NCBI RefSeq assembly: GCF_003790525.1
Contig: NZ_CP033635.1
Direction: 5' to 3' (one strand)
Source: Escherichia coli
Lineage (GTDB): Bacteria; Pseudomonadota; Gammaproteobacteria; Enterobacterales; Enterobacteriaceae
DNA length: 64,000 nt
Shown here: positions 1 to 35,885 of the stretch, in pieces
How the letters are laid out: the number at the start of each line of letters is the position of its first letter
Position numbering within the stretch: the stretch's first letter is position 1
Translations under genes and position numbers: made by a program
Notes under the pieces: model-generated
The model's input: only the letters and a program-made list of their open reading frames with translations
Database searches by the model: none
What the model was told of the DNA's origin: nothing

Positions 1-1443
1 CCGAACATCGCTAACCGCAACAAAGGCGGGCGGCGCAAACCGAAAAAGAATTTTTTCAGCGACGAAGCCATCGAAAAGCTGGAGCAGATTTTCTTTGAGC
101 AGTCTTTCGACTATCAGTTGCACTGGTATCGCGCCGGGCTTGAGCACCGCATCCGCGATATCCTGAAATCCCGCCAGATTGGCGCAACGTTTTATTTTTC
201 CCGCGAGGCGCTGCTGCGTGCCCTGAAAACCGGTCATAACCAGATTTTTCTGTCGGCCAGTAAAACGCAGGCGTATGTGTTCCGCGAATACATCATCGCC
301 TTTGCCCGGCTGGTTGACGTTGACCTGACCGGTGACCCGATTGTCCTGGGCAATAACGGCGCAAAACTGATTTTTCTCGGCACCAACTCCAACACCGCGC
401 AGAGCCATAACGGCGACCTGTACGTCGACGAGATTTTCTGGATCCCGAATTTTCAGGTACTGCGTAAGGTGGCATCAGGTATGGCCTCACAGAGTCACCT
501 GCGCTCGACCTATTTCTCCACCCCGTCCACGCTGGCGCACGACGCCTACCCGTTCTGGTCGGGTGAACTGTTTAACCGGGGACGCGCCAGCGCCGCCGAA
601 CGCGTGGAAATCGACGTCAGTCATAACGCCCTTGCCGGTGGGCTTCTCTGTGCGGACGGCCAGTGGCGGCAGATTGTCACCATTGAGGACGCCCTGAAAG
701 GCGGCTGCACGCTGTTCGACATTGAGCAGCTCAAACGCGAAAACAGCGCCGACGATTTTAAAAACCTGTTCATGTGTGAATTTGTTGACGACAAGGCGTC
801 GGTATTCCCGTTCGAGGAGCTGCAACGCTGCATGGTCGACACGCTGGAAGAATGGGAAGACTATGCGCCGTTTGCCGCCAATCCGTTCGGCTCCCGCCCG
901 GTATGGATTGGTTACGACCCGTCACACCGTGGCGACAGCGCCGGATGCGTGGTGCTGGCACCGCCGGTGGTGGCCGGAGGTAAATTCAGAATACTTGAGC
1001 GTCACCAGTGGAAAGGCATGGACTTTGCCACTCAGGCGGAATCCATCCGCAAACTCACCGAAAAATACAACGTCGAATACATCGGAATTGATGCCACCGG
1101 CCTCGGTGTCGGCGTGTTCCAGCTCGTGCGCTCGTTCTATCCCGCCGCGCGCGATATCCGCTACACGCCGGAAATGAAAACCGCAATGGTGCTCAAGGCA
1201 AAAGACGTCATCCGCCGTGGCTGTCTGGAATATGACGTCAGCGCCACCGACATCACCAGCTCGTTCATGGCTATCCGCAAGACCATGACCAGCAGCGGAC
1301 GCAGCGCCACCTATGAGGCCAGCCGTAGCGAGGAAGCCAGCCACGCCGACCTCGCCTGGGCGACCATGCACGCCCTGTTAAATGAGCCACTCACCGCCGG
1401 TATCAGCACCCCGCTGACATCCACCATTCTGGAGTTTTACTGA
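1..1443 (+). CDS. Phage terminase ATPase (large) subunit, P2 gpP-like; 5' end outside window
   Basis: Frame is open from nt 1 (no stop before the listed 118 start); lies immediately upstream of a 344-aa portal with TGATG stop/start overlap at 1441-1445, as in the P2 P-Q operon. Confidence 0.8.
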   Translation, partial: PNIANRNKGGRRKPKKNFFSDEAIEKLEQIFFEQSFDYQLHWYRAGLEHRIRDILKSRQIGATFYFSREALLRALKTGHNQIFLSASKTQAYVFREYIIAFARLVDVDLTGDPIVLGNNGAKLIFLGTNSNTAQSHNGDLYVDEIFWIPNFQVLRKVASGMASQSHLRSTYFSTPSTLAHDAYPFWSGELFNRGRASAAERVEIDVSHNALAGGLLCADGQWRQIVTIEDALKGGCTLFDIEQLKRENSADDFKNLFMCEFVDDKASVFPFEELQRCMVDTLEEWEDYAPFAANPFGSRPVWIGYDPSHRGDSAGCVVLAPPVVAGGKFRILERHQWKGMDFATQAESIRKLTEKYNVEYIGIDATGLGVGVFQLVRSFYPAARDIRYTPEMKTAMVLKAKDVIRRGCLEYDVSATDITSSFMAIRKTMTSSGRSATYEASRSEEASHADLAWATMHALLNEPLTAGISTPLTSTILEFY

Positions 1444-2477
1444 TGAGCAAGAAAAAAGGGAAAACACCGCAACCTGCGGCAAAAAAAATGACCGCCAGCG
1501 CCCCGAAAATGGAGGCATTCACCTTTGGTGAGCCGGTGCCGGTACTCGACCGCCGTGACATTCTGGATTACGTCGAGTGCATCAGTAACGGCAGATGGTA
1601 TGAGCCACCAGTCAGCTTTACCGGTCTGGCAAAAAGCCTGCGTGCTGCCGTGCATCACAGCTCACCGATTTACGTCAAACGTAACATTCTGGCCTCAACG
1701 TTTATCCCACACCCGTGGCTTTCTCAGCAGGATTTCAGCCGCTTTGTGCTGGATTTTCTGGTATTCGGTAATGCGTTTCTGGAAAAGCGTTACAGCACCA
1801 CCGGTAAGGTCATCAGACTGGAAACCTCACCGGCAAAATATACCCGCCGTGGCGTGGAGGAGGATGTTTACTGGTGGGTGCCGTCCTTCAACGAGCCGAC
1901 ACCTTTCGCGCCCGGCTCCGTGTTTCACCTGCTGGAGCCGGATATTAATCAGGAGCTGTACGGTCTGCCGGAATATCTCAGCGCCCTTAACTCTGCCTGG
2001 CTGAATGAGTCGGCCACGCTGTTCCGCCGCAAGTATTACGAAAACGGCGCTCATGCCGGATATATCATGTACGTCACTGATGCCGTGCAGGATCGCAACG
2101 ATATCGAAATGCTTCGCGAAAACATGGTGAAGTCGAAAGGCCGCAACAACTTTAAAAACCTGTTTCTCTATGCCCCGCAGGGGAAAGCTGACGGCATTAA
2201 AATTATCCCGCTCAGTGAAGTGGCAACGAAGGACGATTTTTTTAATATCAAAAAAGCCAGCGCCGCTGACCTGCTGGACGCGCACCGCATCCCCTTTCAG
2301 TTGATGGGCGGCAAGCCGGAGAACGTCGGGTCGCTGGGTGATATTGAGAAAGTAGCAAAGGTCTTTGTCCGCAATGAGCTTATCCCGTTACAGGACAGGA
2401 TCCGCGAGATAAACGGCTGGCTCGGTCAGGAGGTCATCCGATTTAAAAACTACTCACTGGACACTGACAACGGCTGA
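1443..2477 (+). CDS. Phage portal protein, P2 gpQ-like (344 aa)
   Basis: Size identical to P2 Q; overlapping start with terminase gene; followed by terminator and cos. Confidence 0.8.
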   Translation: MSKKKGKTPQPAAKKMTASAPKMEAFTFGEPVPVLDRRDILDYVECISNGRWYEPPVSFTGLAKSLRAAVHHSSPIYVKRNILASTFIPHPWLSQQDFSRFVLDFLVFGNAFLEKRYSTTGKVIRLETSPAKYTRRGVEEDVYWWVPSFNEPTPFAPGSVFHLLEPDINQELYGLPEYLSALNSAWLNESATLFRRKYYENGAHAGYIMYVTDAVQDRNDIEMLRENMVKSKGRNNFKNLFLYAPQGKADGIKIIPLSEVATKDDFFNIKKASAADLLDAHRIPFQLMGGKPENVGSLGDIEKVAKVFVRNELIPLQDRIREINGWLGQEVIRFKNYSLDTDNG

Positions 2478-2482
2478 ACATC

Positions 2483-2505
2483 GCCGCCTGCGGGCGGCTT
2501 TTTTA
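2483..2505 (+). terminator. Rho-independent terminator after portal gene
   Basis: gccgcc-tgcg-ggcggc hairpin followed by a T-run. Confidence 0.5.
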
Positions 2506-2645
2506 CACCCCGTCATCACGCCCTCACACGTTCGCCACTGTACAAAACACCCCGCAGACACACCAACGCCCCGGCAGGCCGACTAAACGCCATCACGACG
2601 CGCTCAGACGCTGAAAAAATAAAATCAGCACCACCGCCAGCGCGC

Positions 2646-2664
2646 AGTGCTTTCCCCGCCTCGC
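2646..2664. other. Phage cos cohesive-end sequence (P2/186-type)
   Basis: gtgctttccccgcctcgcc is the reverse complement of GGCGAGGCGGGGAAAGCAC, which I recall as the 19-nt P2 cohesive end; position (just 3' of Q) is as expected. Confidence 0.55.
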
Positions 2665-2892
2665 CCGCCCGCTTCATGGGTCGGTTTTGATGCAATTCCA
2701 AAAGCCGTCCAAACTCTCTTAGGCTAAATGTCCAACGAGAAAATAGTTCTTTGAATGTGAATGCATTTTAATGCAGAGTTATGCCCAGCATTTTTGTACA
2801 CTTCGATGTATCAAATGCGCTGCAAACGATCAAATATGGATGTTTTATCAAGCATCCCCCAAAAGATATTTACATCATCCCATGAGGTTAAG

Positions 2893-3966
2893 ATGGATAA
2901 CAAAATCGTAGAAATTGAGACAAATAAGCTTGATTTTGACCCTAAAAACCCACGTTTCTTTCGTCTCAATGATGCCAGTAACGCTGCAACAGTCATTGAG
3001 GAAATGTTAGATGACGAAAGTGTCCACGATCTAATGCTATCAATCGGTCAGCAAGGTTACTTTCCTGGAGAACCTTTATTGGCAGTAAAAAGCAATGGAA
3101 ACTACATCGTGGTTGAGGGAAACAGACGCTTAGCTGCTGTAAAGTTGCTCAATGGAGATCTGCTTCCTCCAAAAAGAAAACTTAAAGGTGTGCAAGAAAT
3201 CATTGATGATACTACCAATAAACCTAAGAAGCTTCCCTGCATCATTTATGAAAACCGAGAGGATGTACTGAGATATATCGGTTATCGTCATATAACTGGG
3301 GTCAAAGAATGGGACTCATTATCTAAAGCCAAATACCTTAAAGAGTTATGTGATACTTTTTATTCACATGAGCCTAAAGAGATAGTATTAAAAAATCTGG
3401 CTCGTGAGATTGGGAGTAAACCACATTATGTTGCAACACTTCTCACTGCACTGAACTTATATGAAGTCGCGCATGACCATGAGTTTTTTAATTTACCCAT
3501 GAAGGCTTCTGACGTGGAATTTTCATATATAACCACAGCTTTGGGATATTCAAAAATCACAAACTGGTTAGGTCTACAGGATAAAAAGGATTTTTTAGAC
3601 CCAAATTTAAATGAAGAAAACCTTAAGCGTTTATTCTCTTGGTTTTTTGTGCCTGACCAACAAGGTAGAACCATCATCGGTGAGTCTCGAAGAATAAAAG
3701 ATATTGCAGCAGTGGTTGAGAAACCCGAAGCAATTGAAATTCTCATGAAAAGTTCAAACTTGGATGAAGCATATCTATATACCAGCGGAGAAAGAGAAGC
3801 ATTAGATAAAGCACTAAACGCAGCTAGTGTTAAATTAAGAGTAGTTTGGGATATGCTACTTAAAGCTAAAGAATTAACATTAGAGCATGAAGAGGCTGCA
3901 TCTGAAATTTTTGAGATGTCAAAAAATATTAGAAATCAGATCAGAAGCAAAAGGGAGGATGATTGA
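2893..3966 (+). CDS. ParB/Srx-like N-terminal-domain protein (hotspot cargo gene 1); ORF open from 2761, start 2893 preferred
   Basis: Motifs LDFDPKNPRFF and IVVEGNRRLAAVKL resemble the ParB PNPxQPR and GERRxRA boxes; GAGG 5 nt upstream of ATG 2893; region looks AT-rich. Confidence 0.7.
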   Translation: MDNKIVEIETNKLDFDPKNPRFFRLNDASNAATVIEEMLDDESVHDLMLSIGQQGYFPGEPLLAVKSNGNYIVVEGNRRLAAVKLLNGDLLPPKRKLKGVQEIIDDTTNKPKKLPCIIYENREDVLRYIGYRHITGVKEWDSLSKAKYLKELCDTFYSHEPKEIVLKNLAREIGSKPHYVATLLTALNLYEVAHDHEFFNLPMKASDVEFSYITTALGYSKITNWLGLQDKKDFLDPNLNEENLKRLFSWFFVPDQQGRTIIGESRRIKDIAAVVEKPEAIEILMKSSNLDEAYLYTSGEREALDKALNAASVKLRVVWDMLLKAKELTLEHEEAASEIFEMSKNIRNQIRSKREDD

Positions 3967-4996
3967 GATTATGATTACAAATCTTGATTCAATGCCTTCT
4001 AATGAGCCTTATTTATGGGCTGATTATATTGAGATATTGGCCTTAACTAATATCGACAGGTCATTCAGTCGAGGAGACCTATATAGCACACTGCAAGCTC
4101 AACCCGAAGCAGTACTAGCTGAAACAGATGAAGCAGAAGAAGAGGGCGTTTATGATGTTGATGATGAAAATGATACGCCTGTACGCAAGAGAACAAAACG
4201 AAGTGTTAGTCGAGCATATACTGACAGAAAGTGGAGCTATGCGATAGGCTTCATACGACAACGCATTGATTTATTTGGGGATAGTTACCCTTTTACTTTA
4301 TCAGAAGACAACGATACTGTAGAGTTACGTGATATATCAGAAAAGCCACTGGAACATTTAGAAAGACTATATTTAGCTTTACTAATCTGTGCTAACATAA
4401 AATATGTCAACATAATGAGCAGAAGAGAGATAACGCGCAGTTTTGAACTAATTAGTTTACCTATTTTTGAAAGCCTAATGCCTAGCGGTAGCATAATAAA
4501 AGCATGCTGGGCTTCTGGTGGTCAAGCGGCCCCTTACACTGGAACTCTATATAATAAATTTAAGAGTATTGCTTCCGATATCCGTTGCACAGCGAACTTC
4601 AAAGAACGAGATTTCAGTCGAGGAAATAGTGGTGACGGAGGCCTTGACATAATTGCCTGGCATCCAATGGGAGATCAACGAGATGCCATCCCTATTTCTT
4701 TTGTTCAGTGTGGCTGTTCTCAAGAAGAGTGGGAAGCGAAGCAGCTTGAGGCCTCACCTGCGATGCTCTACAGTAAATTCCCCGTAGCTCACCGATGGGC
4801 AACTTATTATTTCTTACCTCAAGATCTACGATGGATAGATGGTGAGTGGGCGCATAAAAATAAGTTAGGCGATGCTATTTTTGTTGATCGCCTAAGATTA
4901 ATCAATTTAACCAGAGCATCTGATAATATTGATCACAGTCAAAATATTAGCTATCTAGATATCATCCTTGATCCTTCCAGCGCGATCGCTGCTTAA
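3959..4996 (+). CDS. Hypothetical protein, possible PD-(D/E)xK-like nuclease core in C-terminal half (hotspot cargo gene 2)
   Basis: Start ATG 3959 overlaps gene 1 stop (ATGATTGA), alternative ATG 3971; GGAGG at 3954-3958; acidic then basic tract ETDEAEEEGVYDVDDENDTPVRKRTKR; GGLDIIAW ... EEWEAK fits a D...ExK spacing (weak). Confidence 0.6.
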   Translation: MIEIMITNLDSMPSNEPYLWADYIEILALTNIDRSFSRGDLYSTLQAQPEAVLAETDEAEEEGVYDVDDENDTPVRKRTKRSVSRAYTDRKWSYAIGFIRQRIDLFGDSYPFTLSEDNDTVELRDISEKPLEHLERLYLALLICANIKYVNIMSRREITRSFELISLPIFESLMPSGSIIKACWASGGQAAPYTGTLYNKFKSIASDIRCTANFKERDFSRGNSGDGGLDIIAWHPMGDQRDAIPISFVQCGCSQEEWEAKQLEASPAMLYSKFPVAHRWATYYFLPQDLRWIDGEWAHKNKLGDAIFVDRLRLINLTRASDNIDHSQNISYLDIILDPSSAIAA

Positions 4997-5931
4997 TCCC
5001 ATAAATCTGGAAGGTTTCTAGCAACCGCCTCAAACAATGGAGGCGGTACTGCATTACCTACCACAGTATATTTCATATTAATAGAAGCCCGTTCAGTTTC
5101 TGGGAAAATTAAATCCCCAAAACCTTGTAAAATAGCAGCCTCTCGATAGCTAAACCTACGAGCTGGTGCATCCGAAGTAAATTGCCACTTATCAGGTCCC
5201 AATTTTTCTAATGTTGGACTTATTGGATGTAGAGGCATATGTCTAGGATTTGCAACAATTGTTTTAGATATCTGATCCCAATCTTGCCTACGGTTTCGCG
5301 ATAGATAATACCAATGAAAATCGGCGTCATAAAACTCGCCAACAGGCCAAACAGGCATATGCCCAATAGCATCACGAATTGTGGAATATGGTGTCAAACC
5401 ATCACCATGTGTTGGTTTTGGAAATTTGTATGTAATACCGTAGTCCTTTCGTATTCCTACGATAAAGATTCGCTTCCTATCTTGGGATACCCCATAATGG
5501 GACGCATTCAGAATTTGCGAGCTTACTGTATAACCTGCTTCTTCGAAAACTTTGAATTGATCCTTTAATAAATGCTCAAAGTTACGCCTTACCATACCAG
5601 AGACATTCTCTACAATGAATGCTTTTGGCTTAATTTTACTCAAAGCACGGGCAAACTCTAAATATAGTGTATTAATCTTTCTATCTGCCTTCCTTGCCCC
5701 ACCTTGACTAAATCCTTGGCAAGGATAGCATCCGATGAGCAACTCAGCAGAAGGGAACGACTGGAGCCCTGAGATATCGCCCAAAATGTAGTCAGTTTCA
5801 GGATGGTTTTCTAAGTAAACGTCCCTTGCGTAAGGCAAAATATCATTTGCCATAAGCACATTGAAACCTGCGTTCAAAACTCCCGCATCAGAACCACCAC
5901 ATCCAGAAAAAAGTGAAACTACAGTTGGCAT
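4993..5931 (-). CDS. DNA (cytosine-5)-methyltransferase, short HaeIII/HhaI-size type (312 aa)
   Basis: Motif I FSGCGG, motif IV PCQGFS, motif VI ENV, motif VIII QDRKRIFIVG; AGGAGG-type RBS upstream of start; stop overlaps stop of gene 2 within TTAA at 4993-4996. Confidence 0.9.
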   Translation of the reverse strand: MPTVVSLFSGCGGSDAGVLNAGFNVLMANDILPYARDVYLENHPETDYILGDISGLQSFPSAELLIGCYPCQGFSQGGARKADRKINTLYLEFARALSKIKPKAFIVENVSGMVRRNFEHLLKDQFKVFEEAGYTVSSQILNASHYGVSQDRKRIFIVGIRKDYGITYKFPKPTHGDGLTPYSTIRDAIGHMPVWPVGEFYDADFHWYYLSRNRRQDWDQISKTIVANPRHMPLHPISPTLEKLGPDKWQFTSDAPARRFSYREAAILQGFGDLIFPETERASINMKYTVVGNAVPPPLFEAVARNLPDLWD

Positions 5932-6173
5932 TGACCCCTCCTAAAAACCGACCGCGTATTATAGCGAAACACCCCGTTGGGAAAAGCTAGATTTTGCCAA
6001 GTCTTGATATTCTCACGTTTTAGTAGTTGTGGCCATCTTTAACGAGAAAAAGATAAAATTGACTTCTCATTAATTTTCAATAGGTTTAATTGTAAGCTCA
6101 AACTAACGCCTCGCGACACTCGTTATTCAACCCCGCCAGCCCTGAAAACAAGTTTCACGACTGGCGGCGTTCT

Positions 6174-6392
6174 CTATCGTCTGCGTTGTGGTGGCGCAAC
6201 TCTGGACTGACCGATATGGTTAAACCGCCCGTAATTATCCCGGACTATTTCGGCACACCCGACCAGCTCATCGGGCGTCAGATTTTCGTTGACCATAATC
6301 CGCTGTAAACGCTGAACAATAGCCATCAGCTTGATATTTTTAGTTTTATGGTGCGGTATCTCGCCTGGTATTCTGTGCATTATCCAAGCCAC
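6174..6392 (-). CDS. Small hypothetical protein at cargo/replication-module boundary
   Basis: 72-aa ORF only; overlaps 3' end of ASCH gene; no recognisable motif. Confidence 0.3.
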   Translation of the reverse strand: MAWIMHRIPGEIPHHKTKNIKLMAIVQRLQRIMVNENLTPDELVGCAEIVRDNYGRFNHIGQSRVAPPQRRR

Positions 6393-6832
6393 CCGTTTTG
6401 CTGTGCACGCTCCATCTGTTCATCTGAATAGTTCCATGCTCCATCCGTGGCAACCATTGCCCCGCCAGACATCCCCGTCTCTGGTTCATACATAACAGCA
6501 AGGCCGAGCTGATGCATAATTTCATGATTAATTCTGAATACCAGGCCACGCTCACTAAGTTCTTTCCAGTTCACAATCTCATATGCGCCTGTATTAAGCA
6601 GCTCAATACTTAGCAAGACATAATCTTCCAGCCAGTCTGACAGGTCAGTAACATCTGTTATCCGGGCTTCAACATTTCGCCCCGTATACACACCCTGCAC
6701 CCATTCATACAAAATCAACGTGTCCCCGCGCTCATAATTACGGTCATTTTTCCGGAACTCTGCACGTTTCTTTCCTTCCAGCACAAGGTCGAAATATTTT
6801 GCGTGCAGCTTTACCTCGTGAATTTTTGCCAT
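6380..6832 (-). CDS. ASCH (PUA-like) domain protein at the P2 orf91 position
   Basis: N-terminal MAKIHEVKLHAKYFDLVLEGKKRAEFRKNDRNYERGDTLILYEW resembles ASCH; start ATG 6832 shares a base with the gene A stop (TAATG). Confidence 0.65.
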   Translation of the reverse strand: MAKIHEVKLHAKYFDLVLEGKKRAEFRKNDRNYERGDTLILYEWVQGVYTGRNVEARITDVTDLSDWLEDYVLLSIELLNTGAYEIVNWKELSERGLVFRINHEIMHQLGLAVMYEPETGMSGGAMVATDGAWNYSDEQMERAQQNGWLG

Positions 6833-9159
6833 TATGTCCACTCCATTACTGTTGAGAATCCCGGCCACTCATCAGCGACCGGATACGTGAATTTTTTCCC
6901 GTCATAATTTACGGTCGCGCCACGCGCCAGCGCCTCAAGCTCCCATCGCTGCGGCCTGATACCGTTCTGAGCAAGGTCAACGCGGATACGGGTAATTTGC
7001 GTTCGTTCCGACCGGGTCAGTCTGGCCGATGGCGCTATTTCATGTGGTTTTAACGGGCTTCCGTTTCTCTGCTGACGATTTGGTGTTCTCAGTTCGTGTT
7101 TTAATGCACCTCTGAGCGCCCTCACGACCTCTGGCTCATTCCATTCGATAACACCGTCATCAACCAGATTAAGCACGGCTGCGGCATGTTCATAAGGTGT
7201 GGGAGCCGGTAACGAAGTATCACTGCCGGTGAGCTTTCCACAGTTATTGACAGGACTCCGAGGCGCGGCGATGCCGCTTTTTAAAGTCAAAGGCTCAACG
7301 ACCGGAACTTTCGGCACAATGCGCCAGTCCGTCGTTCTGGTGATATGAATATGACGCGCGCCGAGATGCGGCGCGTAAATACCGACCACTCTCTCGACTT
7401 CTTCCTCGTACTCGTTAACGTCACTCGACGGGCTACGGGCAACCCTGACAGTCTGACAATCGCGCGGGACATTTGCCCCACCCTGCGCGCTGATATACAA
7501 CGCAAAATCACCACTGTCTGCGGCAGCGCGAGCAGCCTCGACGCGTTCGTCAAACTCATCAGCAATACTGACGCCGCGAGGTAATTTGCGTAGTTCACGG
7601 TAAGCCCCCATTGTCGGTAGGCCAACCGTTTTAAATTGCGGAATGCGCCACGTTGACGCCCATGCGGTAACAGCCGCGGCAGTGTCTTTCAGCGGCCTGC
7701 CGGTATCGTTATCGAGCTGACCATCCAGTGCATAGCCGTCGATGTTTTTTGAAATGTATTTCGCGATATACCCCGCAGCACCGCCCCGATTAAGGTGTTT
7801 TGCCTGAAAACGGTTTCGCGCGGCTCCTCTTTCGTCGCCATCCTCTTTGAGCGCATAGCGACGCATGATTTCGATAATCTGGTTACGCTGGCGCGAATTA
7901 CAAAAAAGCATCATATGCCAGTGCGGCGTTCCGTCGTGGTGTGGCTCGACGACACGCAAACCGTAGACCTGTAAATCATTATCCTTGAATGCCGTGCGCA
8001 TCAGGCTCCAGATACGGCAGAGATAACGCTGCGCATCCTTTGGATTAAATGCCTCATCGTTCCAGCCGTGATTAAGCTGCACGGTTTTACTTTCGCCTTT
8101 TCCTACCTGACGTGTCGGGTGATACTTTGACGGCGCGGTCAGCGTGATAAACATCCCCACATCACCCTCTGCAGCGGCGTAACGCTCAATACCGGCAATG
8201 GTGTTCATCAGCTCCATCCGGCGAATTTCAGGATTAGAAATACTGCCCATCACCTTACTGATAAGGTCGATGCGCTCGCCGGTTTCCCTGTTTTCAAGGT
8301 CACACGATTTAAGAAATTCCAGATTTGCCTGGCGGCGCGCACGCACATCACGAATGGCATGTTTACTGGCATAAGGTGAACGGTCTTTATTGACCTCCCC
8401 GACAGCAATCAGTAACGCCTCATGCCAGCGCATACGCTGGCCTTTAAGCTGTCTAATCCACCACTCATCGTTAAACAGGCGGGCAATGGCAGAATATGCC
8501 TGCCTCGTGGTCATCTGCCCTTTACGGTATTTTCTCCAGTACAGCGGGGAAATATTGAAAGCACGTGCAGCGCCAGCAACATGACCATACAGGTGAGCCT
8601 GCGCCTCATCCGTAAACAGCGATTCTTTTTCGCCATGGGCATCCACCCAGGCATCGCAGAGTTCCTCATACATCATGAAAAGCTGCGATGAGATACGGGC
8701 GGCAAACTTTTTCAGCTCCTTGTCATTCATTCCCGGCAGGCGCGCATAGTGGTCACGCTCTGCCAGAAACAGCAACGACGCGTCGGTGTTCATTTCATGG
8801 CGCTGATTCACACGCTCAATGCGCGGCCATAAACGACGCTGAAAAGTGGATGTGAGGAAATAAAACCCGTGCACCGGGCTTTTATTGCGCCGGATGTAGT
8901 CATAGCGTGAAGTAAACAGCGAGCGCAAAAAGTAAGGCAGGCGGTTAATCGTGGATAAAACACCTTGCACCTGACGCATCTCATCACGTGTAAGGGGTCT
9001 TTCGCGCCCGACGGCCTCGCGTGGCGCGTTCCATGCATAAGCACCGGTAAACATCTTACCGGTGCCTGCGGCAAATGCTGACGGAGGGACAAAACGCCCG
9101 GAGGCTTTAACGGCCATATGAGCCAAAAGCCTCTGAACAACGCCTGCTGAGTTGCTCAA
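6832..9159 (-). CDS. Rolling-circle replication initiation endonuclease, P2 gpA-like (HUH superfamily)
   Basis: HUH motif PHWHMMLF and YxxxY motif GYIAKYISK; 775 aa against 761 aa for P2 A; position in early operon. Confidence 0.85.
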   Translation of the reverse strand: MSNSAGVVQRLLAHMAVKASGRFVPPSAFAAGTGKMFTGAYAWNAPREAVGRERPLTRDEMRQVQGVLSTINRLPYFLRSLFTSRYDYIRRNKSPVHGFYFLTSTFQRRLWPRIERVNQRHEMNTDASLLFLAERDHYARLPGMNDKELKKFAARISSQLFMMYEELCDAWVDAHGEKESLFTDEAQAHLYGHVAGAARAFNISPLYWRKYRKGQMTTRQAYSAIARLFNDEWWIRQLKGQRMRWHEALLIAVGEVNKDRSPYASKHAIRDVRARRQANLEFLKSCDLENRETGERIDLISKVMGSISNPEIRRMELMNTIAGIERYAAAEGDVGMFITLTAPSKYHPTRQVGKGESKTVQLNHGWNDEAFNPKDAQRYLCRIWSLMRTAFKDNDLQVYGLRVVEPHHDGTPHWHMMLFCNSRQRNQIIEIMRRYALKEDGDERGAARNRFQAKHLNRGGAAGYIAKYISKNIDGYALDGQLDNDTGRPLKDTAAAVTAWASTWRIPQFKTVGLPTMGAYRELRKLPRGVSIADEFDERVEAARAAADSGDFALYISAQGGANVPRDCQTVRVARSPSSDVNEYEEEVERVVGIYAPHLGARHIHITRTTDWRIVPKVPVVEPLTLKSGIAAPRSPVNNCGKLTGSDTSLPAPTPYEHAAAVLNLVDDGVIEWNEPEVVRALRGALKHELRTPNRQQRNGSPLKPHEIAPSARLTRSERTQITRIRVDLAQNGIRPQRWELEALARGATVNYDGKKFTYPVADEWPGFSTVMEWT

Positions 9160-9382
9160 CCTGCGCGTTTAAATCAGCAAAAGACTTTGCGCTTCCGGTC
9201 AGAATATCGTGATGCATCAGGCCGGAAACGAGCTGGCTTAATTTCGGGTAATAACCAACCACCGCCAGCCATTCCTGACCGGCGTTTTTACCGCTTTCAG
9301 CTCTCTTTTTCTCGTGGAGAATAAACTGAAAGCTGTCACTGGTAACGACATAACGTTCGCCAATTTCAATACGAATACTCAT
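9107..9382 (-). CDS. Phage early-operon hypothetical protein (P2 orf83 position)
   Basis: ORF and synteny only. Confidence 0.5.
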   Translation of the reverse strand: MSIRIEIGERYVVTSDSFQFILHEKKRAESGKNAGQEWLAVVGYYPKLSQLVSGLMHHDILTGSAKSFADLNAQVEQLSRRCSEAFGSYGR

Positions 9383-9603
9383 GCCGTTCTCCGGTAATGT
9401 TTGTTTTTTGCTTCAAAGACTGACTGACAGGAAACACAACGCGTGGCTGACGGATAAGCCGCACGACGGGCAGCAGGTATTGGCGCGTCACACTCTTCGC
9501 AAACCAGCGCAGAAGCACCGCAATGTTTTACCCTTGCCGCGTTAATCTGGCGCTCCAGTAATTCAGCCTGTTGTTCCTGAATAAAATCTACGTTGTCCGG
9601 CAT
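9379..9603 (-). CDS. TraR/DksA-family C4 zinc-finger protein (P2 orf82 position)
   Basis: CxxC ... CxxC pattern (CEECD ... CVSC) in a 74-aa protein. Confidence 0.7.
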   Translation of the reverse strand: MPDNVDFIQEQQAELLERQINAARVKHCGASALVCEECDAPIPAARRAAYPSATRCVSCQSVFEAKNKHYRRTA

Positions 9604-9908
9604 TACCAGTTCCTTTTGTCGTTAAGGTTTTTAAATTCATCAGCGCAATAGCTGGCGATTTCTGTCGTTAATTTCGTCAGTTCATCCACGGAGGAGATTT
9701 GCTTGTGAAACACAGCGCGTTTAACAAGTAAATTGACCACATCAGACAGGAGGTTTAATTCGTTCTGATAAATCGCGATAACAGACTCAGTTATTTCGCG
9801 TTTTTCTTTATCAAGACCAAGTTGAATAAGAGACAAATCGCCATTTTTCATAACGGCGATTTTTAGGGCGTTATTCAGTAATACAACTGAACGAGAACAG
9901 GACATCAA
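9603..9908 (-). CDS. Phage hypothetical protein (orf81 position)
   Basis: ORF, overlapping stop/start chain in operon. Confidence 0.45.
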
Positions 9909-10129
9909 AGCACCTCCCCGCGAGACAATCCGATATTGTGAAATTTTTCCGACTCCTGACTGAGCAGCTCGACTATCTCCACGCGGGATAACTCCGCCTT
10001 TGTGATGTGGCGAATCATGGCGTCAAGATGAGAAGAAAAGCGCGTCGCTGCGTCGGCCTGTGCTTCGGTTCTGGCCTGTTGCAGCAGTAATGCGTATTTA
10101 CCGCACTGATTTTCAGAAACTGTATGCAT
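9905..10129 (-). CDS. Phage hypothetical protein (orf80 position)
   Basis: ORF, operon position. Confidence 0.45.
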
Positions 10130-10192
10130 GACTTTCTCCAGGCAAAAAGAAGCCCCGCACGATTAAGTGCGTTAAAAACTCTGGTTAATTAC

Positions 10193-10693
10193 TTAATGCA
10201 GATATTGCTCTGGTTTTACCGACGTCAGAATTGTCGGTGCATACTCAAACAGGCTGAATAATTCACGTAATGCACGGAATAAAGCATCACGCCAGTAACA
10301 TGATTCTTCATTAATTCGCCAGTATGGCTGGTTGAATTCTTTTTCAGTCAGTCGTGCGTGCATAAATAAAGTGCGACGCTGACTGACTGTTAAAAAACTA
10401 ATATATGCATACTCACTTGCGCCAACCTGACGGCGTTTTGAGAATGCGCCACGCAATTCATCAATTGCACAAACCAGTCGTTCACGTTCGACGTCGTTCA
10501 TTTCTTCAAAACGCATCGTTGCGTGACGCTGTTTTAACTGTGCATGAAAGCAAACCGTTAGCCGTTCGCGCTCCATCATCTGATTATAATAATCACATGT
10601 ATCCTGCCAGCGAGGGACGGCAAGATGCTTGCCAATTATCCGGCGCATAGCTGCTGGCTGTTTTTCAACGAGATTAAGCGTCATCACTGTCAT
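10193..10693 (-). CDS. Phage replication protein, P2 gpB-like (166 aa)
   Basis: Same length as P2 B and same position between cox/orf78 and A. Confidence 0.6.
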   Translation of the reverse strand: MTVMTLNLVEKQPAAMRRIIGKHLAVPRWQDTCDYYNQMMERERLTVCFHAQLKQRHATMRFEEMNDVERERLVCAIDELRGAFSKRRQVGASEYAYISFLTVSQRRTLFMHARLTEKEFNQPYWRINEESCYWRDALFRALRELFSLFEYAPTILTSVKPEQYLH

Positions 10694-10887
10694 TTCCAGC
10701 CCCTCCGGCTTTTCAGAAAGGTCAGAGCCTTTTTTAACGGACTCTGTTTTTTGGTGCGGATAATGATTCCCTTACGCCCCTTACCGTGGGTGATGGTGAA
10801 GTCAATCGCCCTGGGGCTTTCGTTACGCAGTAACTGAGCAATACAACGCGGTTCACTCATAATCACAACCCCATCCACAAAAGCCAT
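10690..10887 (-). CDS. Small phage protein (P2 orf78 position)
   Basis: 65-aa ORF coupled to B. Confidence 0.4.
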   Translation of the reverse strand: MAFVDGVVIMSEPRCIAQLLRNESPRAIDFTITHGKGRKGIIIRTKKQSPLKKALTFLKSRRGWK

Positions 10888-11135
10888 GCATCACGCTGTT
10901 CAACTGGTCGGTTATAAAACGCCTCTCGTACAGCGCGATTAAACTCTGGAATGAAAACCCACTTCTCACCGACACGAGCGTTCGGCTTACTTGGATCACG
11001 AAGCTCAATAACTGGCAACTTATTCTCTTTTACCATCTTGACTACAGCCGTTTCTGGCTTACCAAGTAACTCTGCAAACTTAACCGTATGTACCGCATCA
11101 ATCGGGTACTGAATCACATAGTCATTGACTTCCAT
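10863..11135 (-). CDS. Cox-like excisionase / early-promoter regulator
   Basis: 90 aa against 91 aa for P2 Cox; first gene of early operon, divergent from C-int. Confidence 0.6.
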   Translation of the reverse strand: MEVNDYVIQYPIDAVHTVKFAELLGKPETAVVKMVKENKLPVIELRDPSKPNARVGEKWVFIPEFNRAVREAFYNRPVEQRDAWLLWMGL

Positions 11136-11287
11136 TGATTAGCCCTTTTTGCTTTCGTGTTACCCTTATTAGATCCAGTCCCTTCTAGGTCGCACCTGTC
11201 CTTTCTAGGGACTGGCTAACACACTCAAAAGGTCACCAATACACAACCTTTTGACGGGAATATAAGTCACCAATAGGTTACTGTCAA

Positions 11288-11581
11288 ATGCAGACATTCG
11301 AAAAACTGAAAGCGATTAGGAAAGCAGAAGGCTTAACACAGGCGAAATTCAGCGAAATTAGCGGGATAGCTCTAGGAACAGTCAAAAATTACGAAAGTGG
11401 GCATAAAGACCCTGGTCTCAGCATCGTTATGCGAGTCACAAATACGCCTTTATTTAAAAAATATACGCTCTGGTTAATGACTGGTGATACGTCACCACAA
11501 GCTGGTCAGATCGCGCCGGCTCTCGCACACATTGGGCAAAAACCAACAGAATCAGACCACTCCGAAAAACAGACTGGTTAA
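11288..11581 (+). CDS. Immunity repressor, P2 C-like (HTH)
   Basis: 97 aa; HTH-like segment LTQAKFSEISGIALGTVKNYESG; motif QAGQIAPALAH resembles my recollection of P2 C; upstream of int on same strand. Confidence 0.7.
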   Translation: MQTFEKLKAIRKAEGLTQAKFSEISGIALGTVKNYESGHKDPGLSIVMRVTNTPLFKKYTLWLMTGDTSPQAGQIAPALAHIGQKPTESDHSEKQTG

Positions 11582-11650
11582 CACTCTATAAACATTACAT
11601 TTTCACCATTTGTTACCAAGATGGTGAATACAGCGTCAGAGGGCTTTCTT

Positions 11651-12631
11651 ATGTCAATTAAGAAGCTCGATGATGGACGCTATGAAGTGGACATTAGACC
11701 TCGCGGTCGCGACGGAAAACGCATCCGCAGGAAATTTGAAAGAAAAGCTGAGGCTGTAGCATTTGAGCGATACACAATCGCCTACGCCAGCCAGAAAGAA
11801 TGGGCAGGTCAGCGAGCAGATCGCAGAACTTTGAGTGAGTTGCTGAACATCTGGTGGAAATATCACGGGCAAAACCACGAGCATGGAACAAAAGAGTTTA
11901 ATCATCTGCTCAAAACCATCAGCGGCATAGGTGATATACCAGTGAGCCGGATGAGCAAAAGAGCTTTGATGGATTATCGTTCCATGCGACTACGTGATGG
12001 TATCAGTGCCGCAACGATAAACCGTGACATGTACCGATTATCCGGCATGTTCACAAAATTAATTCAATTGGATGAATTTTCCGGGCAACACCCAATTCAC
12101 GGACTGCCGCCACTGGCGGAGGCCAACCCTGAAATGACGTTCCTGGAAAAAGCAGAAATCGAAAAACTGTTAAATGTTTTGGATGGTGATGACTTACTTG
12201 TCGCACTTTTATGTCTGAGCACTGGAGGAAGATGGACGGAAGTTGCCACGCTAAAACCAGCACAGATTACAAATTGCAGGGTTACCTTCCTGAAAACCAA
12301 AAACGGTAAAAAGCGAACCGTGCCGATTTCTGAGGAACTGGAGAAAAAAGTTAAAGAGGAGGCCAGCGCTAAATTATTCAAAGTTGATTATGAGAAGTTT
12401 TGCGGGATTTTACGCAGAGTGAAGCCAGATATACCACCCAATCAGGCAACCCACATCCTGCGGCATACATTCGCAAGCCATTTCATGATGAATGGGGGCA
12501 ATATAATCGCACTGCAACAGATTCTGGGACATGCGAGCATTCAGCAGACGATGGCCTATGCGCACCTTGCGCCTGACTACCTGCAAAATGCCGTCGCGCT
12601 GAATCCTCTAAAAGGCGGAGTGACGTTATAA
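11651..12631 (+). CDS. Tyrosine integrase, P2 Int-like (ORF open from 11621)
   Basis: C-terminal HILRHTFASHFMMNGGNIIALQQILGHASIQQTMAYAHL tyrosine-recombinase signature; N-terminus MSIKKLDDGRYEVDIRP resembles P2 Int. Confidence 0.9.
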   Translation: MSIKKLDDGRYEVDIRPRGRDGKRIRRKFERKAEAVAFERYTIAYASQKEWAGQRADRRTLSELLNIWWKYHGQNHEHGTKEFNHLLKTISGIGDIPVSRMSKRALMDYRSMRLRDGISAATINRDMYRLSGMFTKLIQLDEFSGQHPIHGLPPLAEANPEMTFLEKAEIEKLLNVLDGDDLLVALLCLSTGGRWTEVATLKPAQITNCRVTFLKTKNGKKRTVPISEELEKKVKEEASAKLFKVDYEKFCGILRRVKPDIPPNQATHILRHTFASHFMMNGGNIIALQQILGHASIQQTMAYAHLAPDYLQNAVALNPLKGGVTL

Positions 12632-12749
12632 ATTTCCCTTCTGAGTGTCCACATAGTGTCCACACTCTCAGAACTTTGTAGCCCTTCCAGTCCCTTATAG
12701 GTTTTCTTAAGTTACTGTTTTCTTACGGAAACCGATGTAAGTGATTGAT

Positions 12750-12777
12750 AAAAAAAACCCCCACATCATGTGGGGGA
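12750..12777 (-). terminator. Rho-independent terminator of cpxP
   Basis: cccccaca-tcatg-tggggg hairpin with A-run on plus strand (T-run on minus) just 3' of cpxP. Confidence 0.5.
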
Positions 12778-12816
12778 AGACAGGGATGGTGTCTATGGCA
12801 AGGAAAACAGGGTTTA

Positions 12817-13317
12817 CTACTGGGAACGTGAGTTGCTACTACTCAATAGCTTCAACGATGAACTTTTTTGCCATTGCGTCACGTCGCGCAACTGCTCCAT
12901 TCGTTGTTGATGTTTCTCGTTTAAAACCGCTTGCTGCTCCGGCGTTAACAGGCGATACATTTGGTTGCGGACTTTTGCCATCTCAACCTGACGAGCAATT
13001 TGCTCATTCGCCATTTTTTCTGCCTGTGCGCGCACAGCGTTTTCATCAAAATTTTCTGCGGTGACAAGGCGATGCATTGTCTCCAGTTCGCTAACATTAA
13101 CAGGAGGCTGTTCGTGCCGGGCCTGTTGCATAAGATCTCGCATCTGCTGACGCTGATGTTCGGTTAAACTTATGCCGTCGAACATATGGCTCTGCGTACT
13201 GCGCTGCGTAAGTTCTTCACCCGGATGCCAGTTATCGCCTGAACCGACTTCAGCAGCGTGGCTTAATGAACTGACTGCCAGCGTTGAGGCCATGACGGCA
13301 GCGGTAACTATGCGCAT
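12817..13317 (-). CDS. cpxP: Periplasmic Cpx-pathway inhibitor/adaptor CpxP
   Basis: Protein [21 protein letters not shown] ... matches CpxP; divergent from cpxRA. Confidence 0.9.
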
Positions 13318-13396
13318 CATTTGCTCCCAAAATCTTTCTGTCGCGATTCAACGATAGAGAGTTTACGATTCAGGCTGCAAACATGCGTCAGGGGGT

Positions 13397-13411
13397 GTAA
13401 AACAACGTAAA
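13397..13411. promoter_or_regulatory. CpxR-P binding box (GTAAA-N5-GTAAA) in cpxP/cpxR divergent promoter region
   Basis: Exact gtaaa-acaac-gtaaa in the intergenic region. Confidence 0.55.
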
Positions 13412-13466
13412 GTCATGGATTAGCGACGTCTGATGACGTAATTTCTGCCTCGGAGGTATTTAAACA

Positions 13467-14165
13467 ATGAATAAAATCCTGTTAGTTGATGATGACCGAG
13501 AGCTGACTTCCCTATTAAAGGAGCTGCTCGAGATGGAAGGCTTCAACGTGATTGTTGCCCACGATGGGGAACAGGCGCTTGATCTTCTGGACGACAGCAT
13601 TGATTTACTTTTGCTTGATGTAATGATGCCGAAGAAAAATGGTATCGACACATTAAAAGCACTTCGCCAGACACACCAGACGCCTGTCATTATGTTGACG
13701 GCGCGCGGCAGTGAACTTGATCGCGTTCTCGGCCTTGAGCTGGGCGCAGATGACTATCTCCCGAAACCGTTTAATGATCGTGAGCTGGTGGCACGTATTC
13801 GCGCGATCCTGCGCCGTTCGCACTGGAGCGAGCAACAGCAAAACAACGACAACGGTTCACCGACACTGGAAGTTGATGCCTTAGTGCTGAATCCAGGCCG
13901 TCAGGAAGCCAGCTTCGACGGGCAAACGCTGGAGTTAACCGGCACTGAGTTTACCCTGCTCTATTTGCTGGCACAGCATCTGGGTCAGGTGGTTTCCCGT
14001 GAGCATTTAAGCCAGGAAGTGCTGGGCAAACGCCTGACGCCTTTCGACCGCGCTATTGATATGCACATTTCCAACCTGCGTCGTAAACTGCCGGATCGTA
14101 AAGATGGTCATCCGTGGTTTAAAACCTTGCGTGGTCGCGGCTATCTGATGGTTTCTGCTTCATGA
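13467..14165 (+). CDS. cpxR: Response regulator CpxR (OmpR family)
   Basis: 232 aa, receiver plus winged-helix; MNKILLVDDDRELT ... Confidence 0.95.
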   Translation: MNKILLVDDDRELTSLLKELLEMEGFNVIVAHDGEQALDLLDDSIDLLLLDVMMPKKNGIDTLKALRQTHQTPVIMLTARGSELDRVLGLELGADDYLPKPFNDRELVARIRAILRRSHWSEQQQNNDNGSPTLEVDALVLNPGRQEASFDGQTLELTGTEFTLLYLLAQHLGQVVSREHLSQEVLGKRLTPFDRAIDMHISNLRRKLPDRKDGHPWFKTLRGRGYLMVSAS

Positions 14166-33577: not shown

Positions 33578-35884
33578 CTACATTCCATAACGTTCAGAAA
33601 TAGCAGCATGCTTCTCTTCATTCGCCCCGGCTTCTTTGGCAAGACGCCACCAGCACAACGGATGTTCCCAGTCAGCGGTCAATTCGTGCAAGGTCTTATC
33701 GATATCACCTTTAGAAACTGAACGCGGCGCGCTGATAACAAAGTAGAACGCGGGCAGCGGCTGTGCATCTTCTCCCTGCTGGCTGTCCGTTAACGTATAG
33801 TCCTCGTTACTGTTGCTCCAGTAGTACCAGTTTCGTTCACGGAGCGCCTCACGGAAGGCATTAAACTGTTCTTCACCAGGCATGACACCTTCGCAGAACC
33901 AGGACTCGCCGTACTCAGTCGGGATAATGGTTTGCAGGCAGGCATAAAGTGGCGTGAAATTCTTCCGTTCTTCCTCATCCTCTGGTTGGGTGTTCAATAT
34001 TTCCGCATCGAATACCACAACTTCATCAACATGTTGCGGATAATCGGTCCGGTAAGTTGGCTCAATGATCCTTGCTGTTACCGGCCCAATACGTTGAGCA
34101 TAGTAATAGCGGTATTCATAATTTTCCCGGAAGCGAATGTTTAGCAGTCCCCATTTTTCGTCGATAAAACCTTCACCTTCCGTAAGTTCGATTTCCAGTT
34201 CAGCTGCAATAGCACGAACCAAATCCCATTGTTGCAGGATGCTGGCGGTCGCCATGATATCCCACTGGATATTACGAATATCTTCTTCACGGCTAATCAT
34301 CAGTTGCTGCAATTGTTGTAAATAATCCAGCTGTCGATCCCAGGCTTCCTGTTTTTGTGCTGCCCAGGAGCACATGCGATAAACGCCGATCCACTCACGC
34401 CCTTTTTCGTTTTGCAGCAACTGGTGCCCAATCGACTCGAGTTCACTCCAGTCTTCCTGTTGGTTGATCACTCGCGCACGGAACCACAAGGCCATATGTA
34501 GCAGCCCCGCCTGTTCATACTGCTTCGCCAGGTGCTCAATGGTTTGCAGATCGTCACGGTGGAGCAATAAATCCAACAGATCGAAGCAAAGACCATTATC
34601 TTCCTGGATGTGGCTTTCGACGTAGCGTTGCAGAAGTTCAATCGACTCATCAATCGCATTACAGGCGTTTAACGCATTGACCAGTTTGCCCAGCAATTCC
34701 GCATCATCTGGCGCGTTCAGGTAAGCGCGGCGGAATGTTTCGACGTCTTTTTCTGGATCTGGCTGCGTTTCTTCATCGCTATTTTCAGGTACTTCTACAA
34801 CCGGACGAGCAAGCAACTCTGCTTCTTTGGCGGCGATTTTTTCACTCAGTTCGAGAAACTCACGATCAACCCCCAGTAACACGCGTAATTTTGGCATGTG
34901 TCGCTGGGCCAGTTTCATCGCTATTTTGGCAACCCAGACGGATTCACGCTCCAGCGCCAGGGTAATTTGCAGTTTCGCCAGATCAACCACTTTGCGGTGC
35001 GCTCCGGCCTGCGAGCGGTGCTCCAGCATTTTTTGGATGATGCGCGCCAGTTGCCAGTTGTTTCTTTGTGGATGACGGGGAAGTAACACAGTAATGATTT
35101 TCAGCCATGACCCCCATGAATGGGGAGTCAGATCTGACCAACGCGGTAATTCCTCCCAGACTTCTTCGTCCTGCCCGCATAACGCCATGATGTACAGTTT
35201 TTTGAGGTGATTACTAATGCGGTCGCGGCCCCAGTAATCATTGGCTTCTGTCAGCTCATCAATCAGTATGCGTGCTTCATCATAACGCTGAAGTTCAATC
35301 AGAATATCGGCACGAGTATAAAGTAATGCATCAATATCATCTTCCCCGGCTGCTTTAACTGCGTCGATTTGTCGATCCAGATAAGCCAGTGCCTCCTCTA
35401 TTCTTTTGGAATCTATCAGTGCACTGGCATATTCAGTGGACAAACACTGAAAACAGCTCCAGGTCGGATCAATCCGCGCGATGGTTTCTTCACATACCGC
35501 CATACGTTCATTCGCCCAGCCAGGTGCATCAATATTTTCGTAGCAGGCGGATAAATCCTGGGTAACGCAGATAGATTGTGGGCAATCTTTTGTCTCTTCC
35601 CGGTGCGCTTTTTCAAACAGCGCTACCACGTCTGGCAGCACCTTTTCACCTTCTTCATAGTTAGTCAGGCGATGACGCATTTCCCAGTGACCAATAAATA
35701 TTTCCAGCCACGGATTTTTTGCCACCTGGGTAAGTGCTTTTACTTCAGGTAACAGCGAATCGCACTTTTCCATTTGCAGGTGCATAACGCCTTCCGAATA
35801 ATCATCGATAAGTTGCGGAATATACTCCTGCCCGGCATCGCGTAACTCCTTAGTATATTTGTGATACCACTCCCATATATCCAT
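33578..35884 (-). CDS. Hypothetical 768-aa protein, alpha-helical, second gene of HtpG-like operon
   Basis: Start ATG 1 nt downstream of the HtpG-like stop; no catalytic motif recognised; sequence suggests a helical repeat protein. Confidence 0.75.
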   Translation of the reverse strand: MDIWEWYHKYTKELRDAGQEYIPQLIDDYSEGVMHLQMEKCDSLLPEVKALTQVAKNPWLEIFIGHWEMRHRLTNYEEGEKVLPDVVALFEKAHREETKDCPQSICVTQDLSACYENIDAPGWANERMAVCEETIARIDPTWSCFQCLSTEYASALIDSKRIEEALAYLDRQIDAVKAAGEDDIDALLYTRADILIELQRYDEARILIDELTEANDYWGRDRISNHLKKLYIMALCGQDEEVWEELPRWSDLTPHSWGSWLKIITVLLPRHPQRNNWQLARIIQKMLEHRSQAGAHRKVVDLAKLQITLALERESVWVAKIAMKLAQRHMPKLRVLLGVDREFLELSEKIAAKEAELLARPVVEVPENSDEETQPDPEKDVETFRRAYLNAPDDAELLGKLVNALNACNAIDESIELLQRYVESHIQEDNGLCFDLLDLLLHRDDLQTIEHLAKQYEQAGLLHMALWFRARVINQQEDWSELESIGHQLLQNEKGREWIGVYRMCSWAAQKQEAWDRQLDYLQQLQQLMISREEDIRNIQWDIMATASILQQWDLVRAIAAELEIELTEGEGFIDEKWGLLNIRFRENYEYRYYYAQRIGPVTARIIEPTYRTDYPQHVDEVVVFDAEILNTQPEDEEERKNFTPLYACLQTIIPTEYGESWFCEGVMPGEEQFNAFREALRERNWYYWSNSNEDYTLTDSQQGEDAQPLPAFYFVISAPRSVSKGDIDKTLHELTADWEHPLCWWRLAKEAGANEEKHAAISERYGM

Positions 35885-35885
35885 T

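Follow-up and report, generated by a model that had tools for sequence, protein, structure and literature searches.

The AGTGTCCACA pair at positions 12644-12664 of the window, i.e., the whole 64-kb stretch of Escherichia coli DNA that was analysed, is very likely the P' arm pair of arm-type Int sites in the attachment site of a WPhi-type P2-like prophage, a reading drawn from comparison of its sequence with those of related phages and lysogens. The repeat is thereby assigned to Int arm sites. The prophage boundary is fixed by the core at 12747-12793, and the element measures 35,001 bp from core to core. The features concerned are listed in Table 1.

Table 1. Predicted and annotated features around the prophage-cpxP junction, in window coordinates.
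Feature	Position	Strand	Basis and remarks
cox, lytic repressor and excision factor	10863..11135	-	Pfam Phage_Cox E 9e-24; WPhi annotation
Two 12-nt direct repeats, GTCCCTTCTAGG and GTCCTTTCTAGG, 20 bp apart, Pe-Pc region	11178..11209	+	Probable Cox operator; related to the P' arm box
C immunity repressor (HTH), first gene of the C-int operon	11288..11581	+	Pfam HTH_3; WPhi annotation
int, tyrosine integrase, 326 aa	11651..12631	+	RefSeq start; mechanical ORF from 11621; stop taa 12629-12631
P' arm-type Int binding site, copy 1 (predicted)	12644..12653	-	AGTGTCCACA on +, TGTGGACACT on -, fits tgTGGaCa; identical to 10-mer in P2 'Int, P' arm'
P' arm-type Int binding site, copy 2 (predicted)	12655..12664	-	One helical turn (11 bp) from copy 1; same basis; invariant in four diverged arm variants
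Candidate Cox box GTCCCTTATAGG, P' arm	12690..12701	+	Suggested by similarity to the switch-region repeat
Candidate IHF site TATCAATCACTTA (WATCARNNNNTTR)	12738..12750	-	Perfect consensus; preceded by T-run; abuts core
att core, 47 nt, GATAAAAAAAACCCCCACATCATGTGGGGGAAGACAGGGATGGTGTC	12747..12793	.	Identity common to attB, attP and both prophage ends
CpxQ sRNA (cpxP 3' UTR)	12750..12807	-	5' end approximate; terminator scan, PMC9438474, PMC4817254
cpxP	12817..13320	-	RefSeq annotation; stop codon 12817-12819

The prophage next to cpxP and its attachment core

Positions 1-12900 of the 64-kb window are 100% identical to the reverse strand of the E. coli SMS-3-5 chromosome (NC_010498.1, 4421563-4408664), in which the RefSeq annotation of the locus places a complete P2-like prophage between cpxP and fieF. 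The annotated gene order runs from int through C (HTH), cox, the B-region genes and the replication endonuclease gpA into an accessory region, followed by portal, terminase, capsid, lysis and tail genes, with D and ogr at the far end. Judged by its sequence, the element is a WPhi-type P2-like prophage (Peduovirus) of approximately 35 kb. Positions 11200-12793 share 99.7% DNA identity over 1594 bp with phage WPhi (AY135739/NC_005056), a match that stops exactly at 12793, and the int gene by itself is 99.7% identical to that of WPhi; moreover, the insertion site of WPhi in E. coli W has been listed as "cpxP-fieF" (PMC3032704). Thus int, C and attP of the window prophage are near-identical to those of the WPhi lineage, and its site is cpxP-fieF. 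The likeness to WPhi comprises the C-int-P' arm-core stretch at the above 99.7% DNA identity, identical arm repeats, an identical 47-nt core and the same chromosomal site as in E. coli W, whereas the remainder of the SMS-3-5 prophage is mosaic, with other accessory cargo in the old/tin hotspot and an IS4 element in the ogr terminator. The prophages of SMS-3-5 and E. coli W are 98.4% identical over 12.9 kb. A P4-like satellite or a PICI, which the 775-aa replication protein and the small integrase had brought to mind, was rejected because of the P2 gene order (terminase, portal, gpA, cox, C, int, ogr) and the identity to WPhi.

Several further observations concern the body of the prophage and a relative. 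The segment from the portal gene to gpA (window 2761-5931) is the 'old/tin' accessory hotspot of P2, and it encodes a ParB-N-like protein of which the N-terminal approximately 150 aa match PADLOC PD-Lambda-5_A (E 3e-24) and PDC-M38A, a convergent C5 cytosine methyltransferase (PF00145, DruM-like), and a 369-aa protein without Pfam or PADLOC match; this cargo is possibly an anti-phage cassette. The IS4 copy lies inside the ogr terminator hairpin of the SMS-3-5 prophage, approximately 21 kb left of the window start (about 35250-36680 of the extracted SMS-3-5 locus), and is accompanied by a duplication of its target, CTCAACTGAGGGG; both the core and the P-arm Int sites of this prophage are intact, and its length is 35,001 bp as against approximately 33.6 kb. 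In E. coli WCHEC020031 (3297433-3313468), a decayed relative occupies the same site; its genes for sheath, baseplate V, portal and replication endonuclease are truncated, and its int and both att junctions are identical.

The core was delimited in a four-way alignment that combined the junctions of the window and of a related lysogen (its ogr side) with WPhi attP and the empty site of a prophage-free strain. A preliminary description of this DNA had proposed a prophage-chromosome junction beside cpxP, which was borne out by the end of the WPhi match at 12793 and the start of the empty-site match at 12747; it had also recommended the empty-site alignment as the means to find the core, and this alignment indeed located 12747-12793. 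In exact-match searches, the empty site and WPhi each gave one copy of the 47-nt core, and SMS-3-5 gave two, which are 35,001 bp apart (extract positions 1772 and 36773) with an identity that extends zero bases to either side. The core is therefore both the attP/attB identity and the direct repeat at the two prophage ends. Its second copy adjoins fieF, approximately 22.2 kb left of window position 1, where the expected other junction beyond the left edge was found with a matching core as direct repeat. Furthermore, a 701-bp junction query matched all genomes with cpxP (5425 of 5425), only 791 of which also matched across int; in the genomes without int match, similarity begins at query base 348, corresponding to window position 12747.

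On these alignments, the exchange point must lie somewhere inside 12747-12793, i.e., within the cpxP terminator/CpxQ sequence. The interval 12632-12750, in which the preliminary description had confined the junction, was not upheld, since empty-site similarity starts at 12747; the segment in which exchange would occur had been taken for flanking chromosome. According to the P2/lambda convention the window junction is attL (B-O-P'), although it is the right-hand one in window coordinates.

The tandem 10-mer as predicted arm sites of the integrase

The int stop and cpxP are separated by 185 bp, and within this gap the 9-mer gtgtccaca had been noticed twice, 2 nt apart, between the int stop and the cpxP terminator. 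Both copies were confirmed, and they are contained in two exact copies of AGTGTCCACA with a period of 11 bp, the first of which starts 12 nt past the int stop. The heptamer GTCCACA occurs three times in the 64-kb window, twice in this pair, and AGTGTCCACA is the sole exact, non-low-complexity 10-mer that is repeated at a period of 10-13 bp within the window. First-order Markov simulation of 64 kb yielded at least one such tandem in approximately 20% of the runs; therefore, the repeat by itself is not statistically compelling, and the case for its function rests on comparative evidence.

P2-like integrases recognise arm sites through their N-terminal domain (Nilsson et al. 2011, PMC3448106), and the arm-site consensus of the P2-type group, tgTGGaCa (PMC3448106), is the reverse complement of TGTCCACA within the window repeat. 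The P' arm of P2 reads GAGAGTGTCCACA-C-AGTGTCCACAG, i.e., the same two 10-mers at the same 11-bp period. At least two direct repeats of the tgTGGaCa type are present on each side of the core, namely the pair at 12644-12664 on the P' arm and CTGTCCACAT-AGCGTCCACAT, in the same orientation, on the P arm (ogr side) of WPhi and SMS-3-5. Moreover, alignment of four cpxP-adjacent prophage variants revealed that CTGAGTGTCCACATAGTGTCCACACTC is invariant and that the DNA from the repeat to the core is heavily diverged. The conservation across P2, WPhi and diverged variants, the second pair on the other arm, and the co-variation of the motif on both arms in another lineage (see below) leave a negligible probability to a chance tandem duplication without function, despite the one-in-five frequency with which simulated 64-kb sequences hold such a tandem.

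The integrase itself contains the Pfam domains Int_N (E 3e-28) and Phage_integrase (E 4e-20). It is identical to P2 Int in 35 of the 42 residues (83%) of the N-terminal 42-aa arm-binding segment and in 52% of residues overall, which fits an arm specificity in common with P2 and a different core specificity; the P2 site annotation used as a reference belongs, accordingly, to a phage with an Int that is only 52% identical. In the P2 RefSeq record (NC_001895), the order of the protein_bind features is ogr terminator, Int P arm, IHF, Int core, Cox, Int P' arm, and int. When P2 and WPhi are aligned, conserved islands stand out at the arm repeats of P' and of P, over part of the IHF region and at the ogr terminator, and the cores are unrelated. 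Compared with the experimentally footprinted attP of P2, the element order is thus the same, the P' 10-mers and their 11-bp spacing are identical, and the P repeats, IHF region and ogr terminator are similar. Differences concern the core, which is 27 bp in P2 and 47 nt here and is of unrelated sequence, so that the host site differs, as well as the P' sites, which overlap the end of int in P2 but follow the int stop at 12 nt in the window.

In the attP of phage lambda, the N-terminal domain of Int binds arm repeats, its C-terminal domains act on the core, and bending proteins bridge the two. The window prophage would have the heterobivalent arm/core logic of Int in common with lambda (PMC3448106), whereas arm sequence, site number and core are different, without detectable sequence relationship of the att DNA. 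The 186-type arm sites (tgccGCCActt) likewise form direct repeats on each of the two arms of their P2-like attP (PMC3448106); however, their motif is a different one and the 186-type group tends to integrate in tRNA genes, whereas the window element belongs to the P2-type group.

Two readings of the repeat had been offered in the preliminary description, i.e., an integrase binding site or a part of the att core, and the identity with P2 supports the first in the form of an arm-type Int site. The second did not stand. The position of the repeat between int and the chromosome is one where a core might be expected, and the core hairpin arm ATGTGGGGG is loosely like TGTGGACA; however, the repeat ends 82 bp before the 47-nt segment that is common to attB, attP and both junctions, it is absent from attB, and the identical repeat of P2 accompanies an unrelated core, which makes a role as part of the att core or crossover region extremely improbable. 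In agreement with the expectation that the repeat would be missing from prophage-free strains, an exact-match search of 3.35 kb around the empty site did not find AGTGTCCACA.

The 10-mers are enclosed by an inverted repeat, TTCTGAGTGT/ACTCTCAGAA (12639-12648 and 12664-12673), with a minimum free energy of -9.2 kcal/mol, which could imply an RNA hairpin acting as terminator or stabiliser at the 3' end of the C-int transcript, the direct repeat being incidental. This we consider very improbable, if somewhat less so than a core function of the repeat: the z-score is only -1.70, with 15 of 200 shuffled sequences folding as well, the structure is without U-tract and was not called by the terminator scan, and the outer stem is not conserved in P2 and is altered in those arm variants in which the 10-mers are invariant. 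The DNA between the 10-mers and the core contains candidate sites for accessory proteins.

Two segments of the Pe-Pc switch region resemble the 17-nt box TCCAGTCCCTTATAGGT at 12686-12702: 11174-11190 matches it at 94%, and 11194-11210 is related to it. The Pe-Pc target of WPhi Cox is reported to be a direct repeat of 12 nt (PMC5009727), and the P2 RefSeq record places the footprint of Cox in the interval that separates the P' arm sites from the core. On basis of the switch-region likeness, the 12-nt repeat of WPhi Cox and the position of the P2 footprint, GTCCCTTATAGG is read as a candidate Cox box; the Cox box of P2 is a different one, TTAAA(G/C)NC(A/C), as opposed to the 12-nt repeat in WPhi (PMC5009727). 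In variant lineages, boxes common to arm and switch region were also found, and their co-variation in two lineages is suggestive, with a pattern that is not clean. With respect to IHF, the perfect consensus at 12738-12750 is the one match in the 4-kb WPhi locus; this number is near the 0.41 expected by chance, so that the site is no more than a candidate. A segment ATGTAAGTrATTG is kept in the diverged arm variants. The annotated IHF site of P2 is on the P arm and not beside P', and the P-arm segment of WPhi resembles the P2 IHF region.

Between cox and C, GTCACCAATA occurs twice (11232-11241 and 11266-11275), 34 bp apart. The half-sites O1 and O2 of the WPhi C repressor were reported as TATTGGTGAC in oligonucleotides, with a centre-to-centre spacing of 34 nt (PMC1904263), and the GTCACCAATA pair matches both these half-sites and the spacing. 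Direct repeats are the targets of P2-like C and Cox proteins (PMC1904263; PMC5009727), and the tandem 10-mer might by this token bind Cox or the C repressor instead of Int. However, the C half-sites GTCACCAATA and the Cox-type 12-mer GTCCCTTCTAGG are both unlike GTGTCCACA, and P2 and WPhi are heteroimmune and differ in Cox specificity, yet have exactly the same repeat; binding of such a regulator is hence judged slightly less probable still than the transcript hairpin. By analogy with the protein_bind annotation of P2, Int would bind the arm pair in the WPhi-type prophage of the window, and recombination would depend on these repeats; Cox and IHF may bind at their candidate sites.

CpxQ and the cpxP terminator within the core

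The terminator scan called a Rho-independent terminator of cpxP on the minus strand, with a hairpin at 12758-12776 and a U8 run at 12750-12757. CpxQ is an RNA of approximately 60 nt that covers nearly the whole cpxP 3' UTR (PMC9438474; PMC4817254); it is Hfq-dependent, cut by RNase E from the cpxP mRNA, and exceptionally conserved in enterobacteria (PMC9438474; PMC4817254; PMC5736990). The cpxP 3' UTR in the window comprises 67 nt (12750-12816), and the RNA assigned to it lies directly 3' of the stop codon, ends with the terminator and has a length of approximately 60 nt, as is characteristic of CpxQ. Of the approximately 60 nt of CpxQ, the att core takes in the 3' 44 nt and with them the cpxP terminator, i.e., the Hfq-binding terminator plus the adjacent conserved stretch. 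We take the 5' end at about 12807 to be that of the species of reportedly 58 nt (Chao and Vogel 2016), of which the 5' 14 nt, UUUUCCUUGCCAUA, would presumably stay chromosomal.

The core copy brought by the phage is identical to the 3' part of CpxQ, and therefore the cpxP-CpxQ unit is intact in the lysogen. At the opposite end, the second terminator copy separates ogr from fieF. We infer that neither cpxP-CpxQ nor fieF is affected by integration, which would thus be silent on both sides. This resembles integration into the 3' ends of sRNA or tRNA genes with regeneration of the gene, in that the end of an RNA gene next to its terminator, here that of CpxQ, is copied in the phage core, so that the gene remains intact; it differs in that CpxQ is a processed mRNA 3' UTR and not an independent gene (PMC9438474). 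That the attB of WPhi is CpxQ is the sole mildly new point in this respect, the WPhi att site and the POP' architecture of P2 being known already; no paper linking CpxQ to prophage integration was found in the searchable literature.

The Rfam scan of 12400-13500 gave no curated family on the CpxQ strand. On the opposite, plus strand, Hrs1 (RF02628, 'Hfq-regulated sRNA 1') matched 12750-12822 with 44.5 bits, below the gathering score of 56.4, and the two other Rfam matches in this region were at chance level. The Hrs1 consensus starts with an A-run that is followed by a GC hairpin and thus resembles a terminator read backwards; the family may represent a CpxQ homologue modelled on the wrong strand.

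With the core being the 3' 44 nt of CpxQ, a sense-oriented partial CpxQ copy would lie downstream of ogr in all WPhi-type phages and in at least one further Int lineage, whose arm sites differ. Transcription that continues from ogr or the late operon could then generate a CpxQ-like RNA or an Hfq sponge during lytic growth, or the fieF-side copy could only insulate fieF from prophage transcription; we advance this as a speculation that is unlikely to hold.

Distribution of the site and a proposed course of recombination

The P' arm was detected in 780 of the 5426 complete E. coli genomes, on the chromosome in all cases, and int was adjacent to cpxP in 791 genomes of the same set. Among the 780 carriers, 260 have a near-identical arm, and approximately 520 have an arm that is only about 80% identical, with the 10-mers kept; five examples of the diverged arm were retrieved and all five lie beside cpxP. 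No match was on a plasmid record, with the exception of a 32,330-bp attP replicon. This replicon, NZ_JBQJRQ010000002.1, is a circular P2-like phage genome that was assembled as a separate replicon and is annotated as a plasmid. Its Int is 67% identical to that of the window and its core is the same CpxQ-terminator sequence, with about 44-46 nt matched; therefore, at least two Int lineages target the CpxQ-terminator attB. Two copies of TTGTCTACA occupy its int-side arm, and the opposite arm contains CGTCTACA and TGACTACA, such that GTCTACA replaces GTCCACA in three of the four arm copies, TGACTACA being the fourth, and positions and period are kept. Such a parallel change of the motif on both arms, with position and period retained, supports a function of the repeat.

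In the proposed mechanism, Int would act as a heterobivalent tyrosine recombinase, the N-domains of which hold four arm repeats, one pair being that of the window (P') and the other that of the ogr side (P), while its core-binding and catalytic domains would act on the 47-bp core at 12747-12793, where the seat of Int is probably the palindromic CCCCCACAT-C-ATGTGGGGG. Bending of the DNA between arm and core would unite both types of sites in one intasome; on the P' arm, the bend is probably imposed by Cox at the GTCCCTTATAGG box, for excision, and IHF may contribute as well. Strand exchange within the core would then lead to integration or excision of the phage. Upon integration, an intact cpxP-CpxQ transcription unit would be rebuilt at the window junction, and the second terminator copy would come to lie between ogr and fieF.

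In an inventory of E. coli W and laboratory strains (Table 2 of PMC3032704), the three sites of P2-like prophages are rybB, cyaR and cpxP-fieF. All three are at or beside loci of Hfq-dependent sRNAs, a pattern suggesting that P2-type integrases generally prefer the terminators of sRNAs. The use of the 3' end of a stress sRNA as attB by at least two Int lineages fits the targeting of sRNA loci, such as rybB and cyaR, by P2-like phages. The presumably silent integration at cpxP/CpxQ is relevant to annotators of CpxQ or of E. coli prophage ends. Finally, the integrase and the arm are found in approximately 14-15% of complete E. coli genomes (780-791 of 5426), next to cpxP in each example inspected, which makes this prophage a common polymorphism at the Cpx locus.
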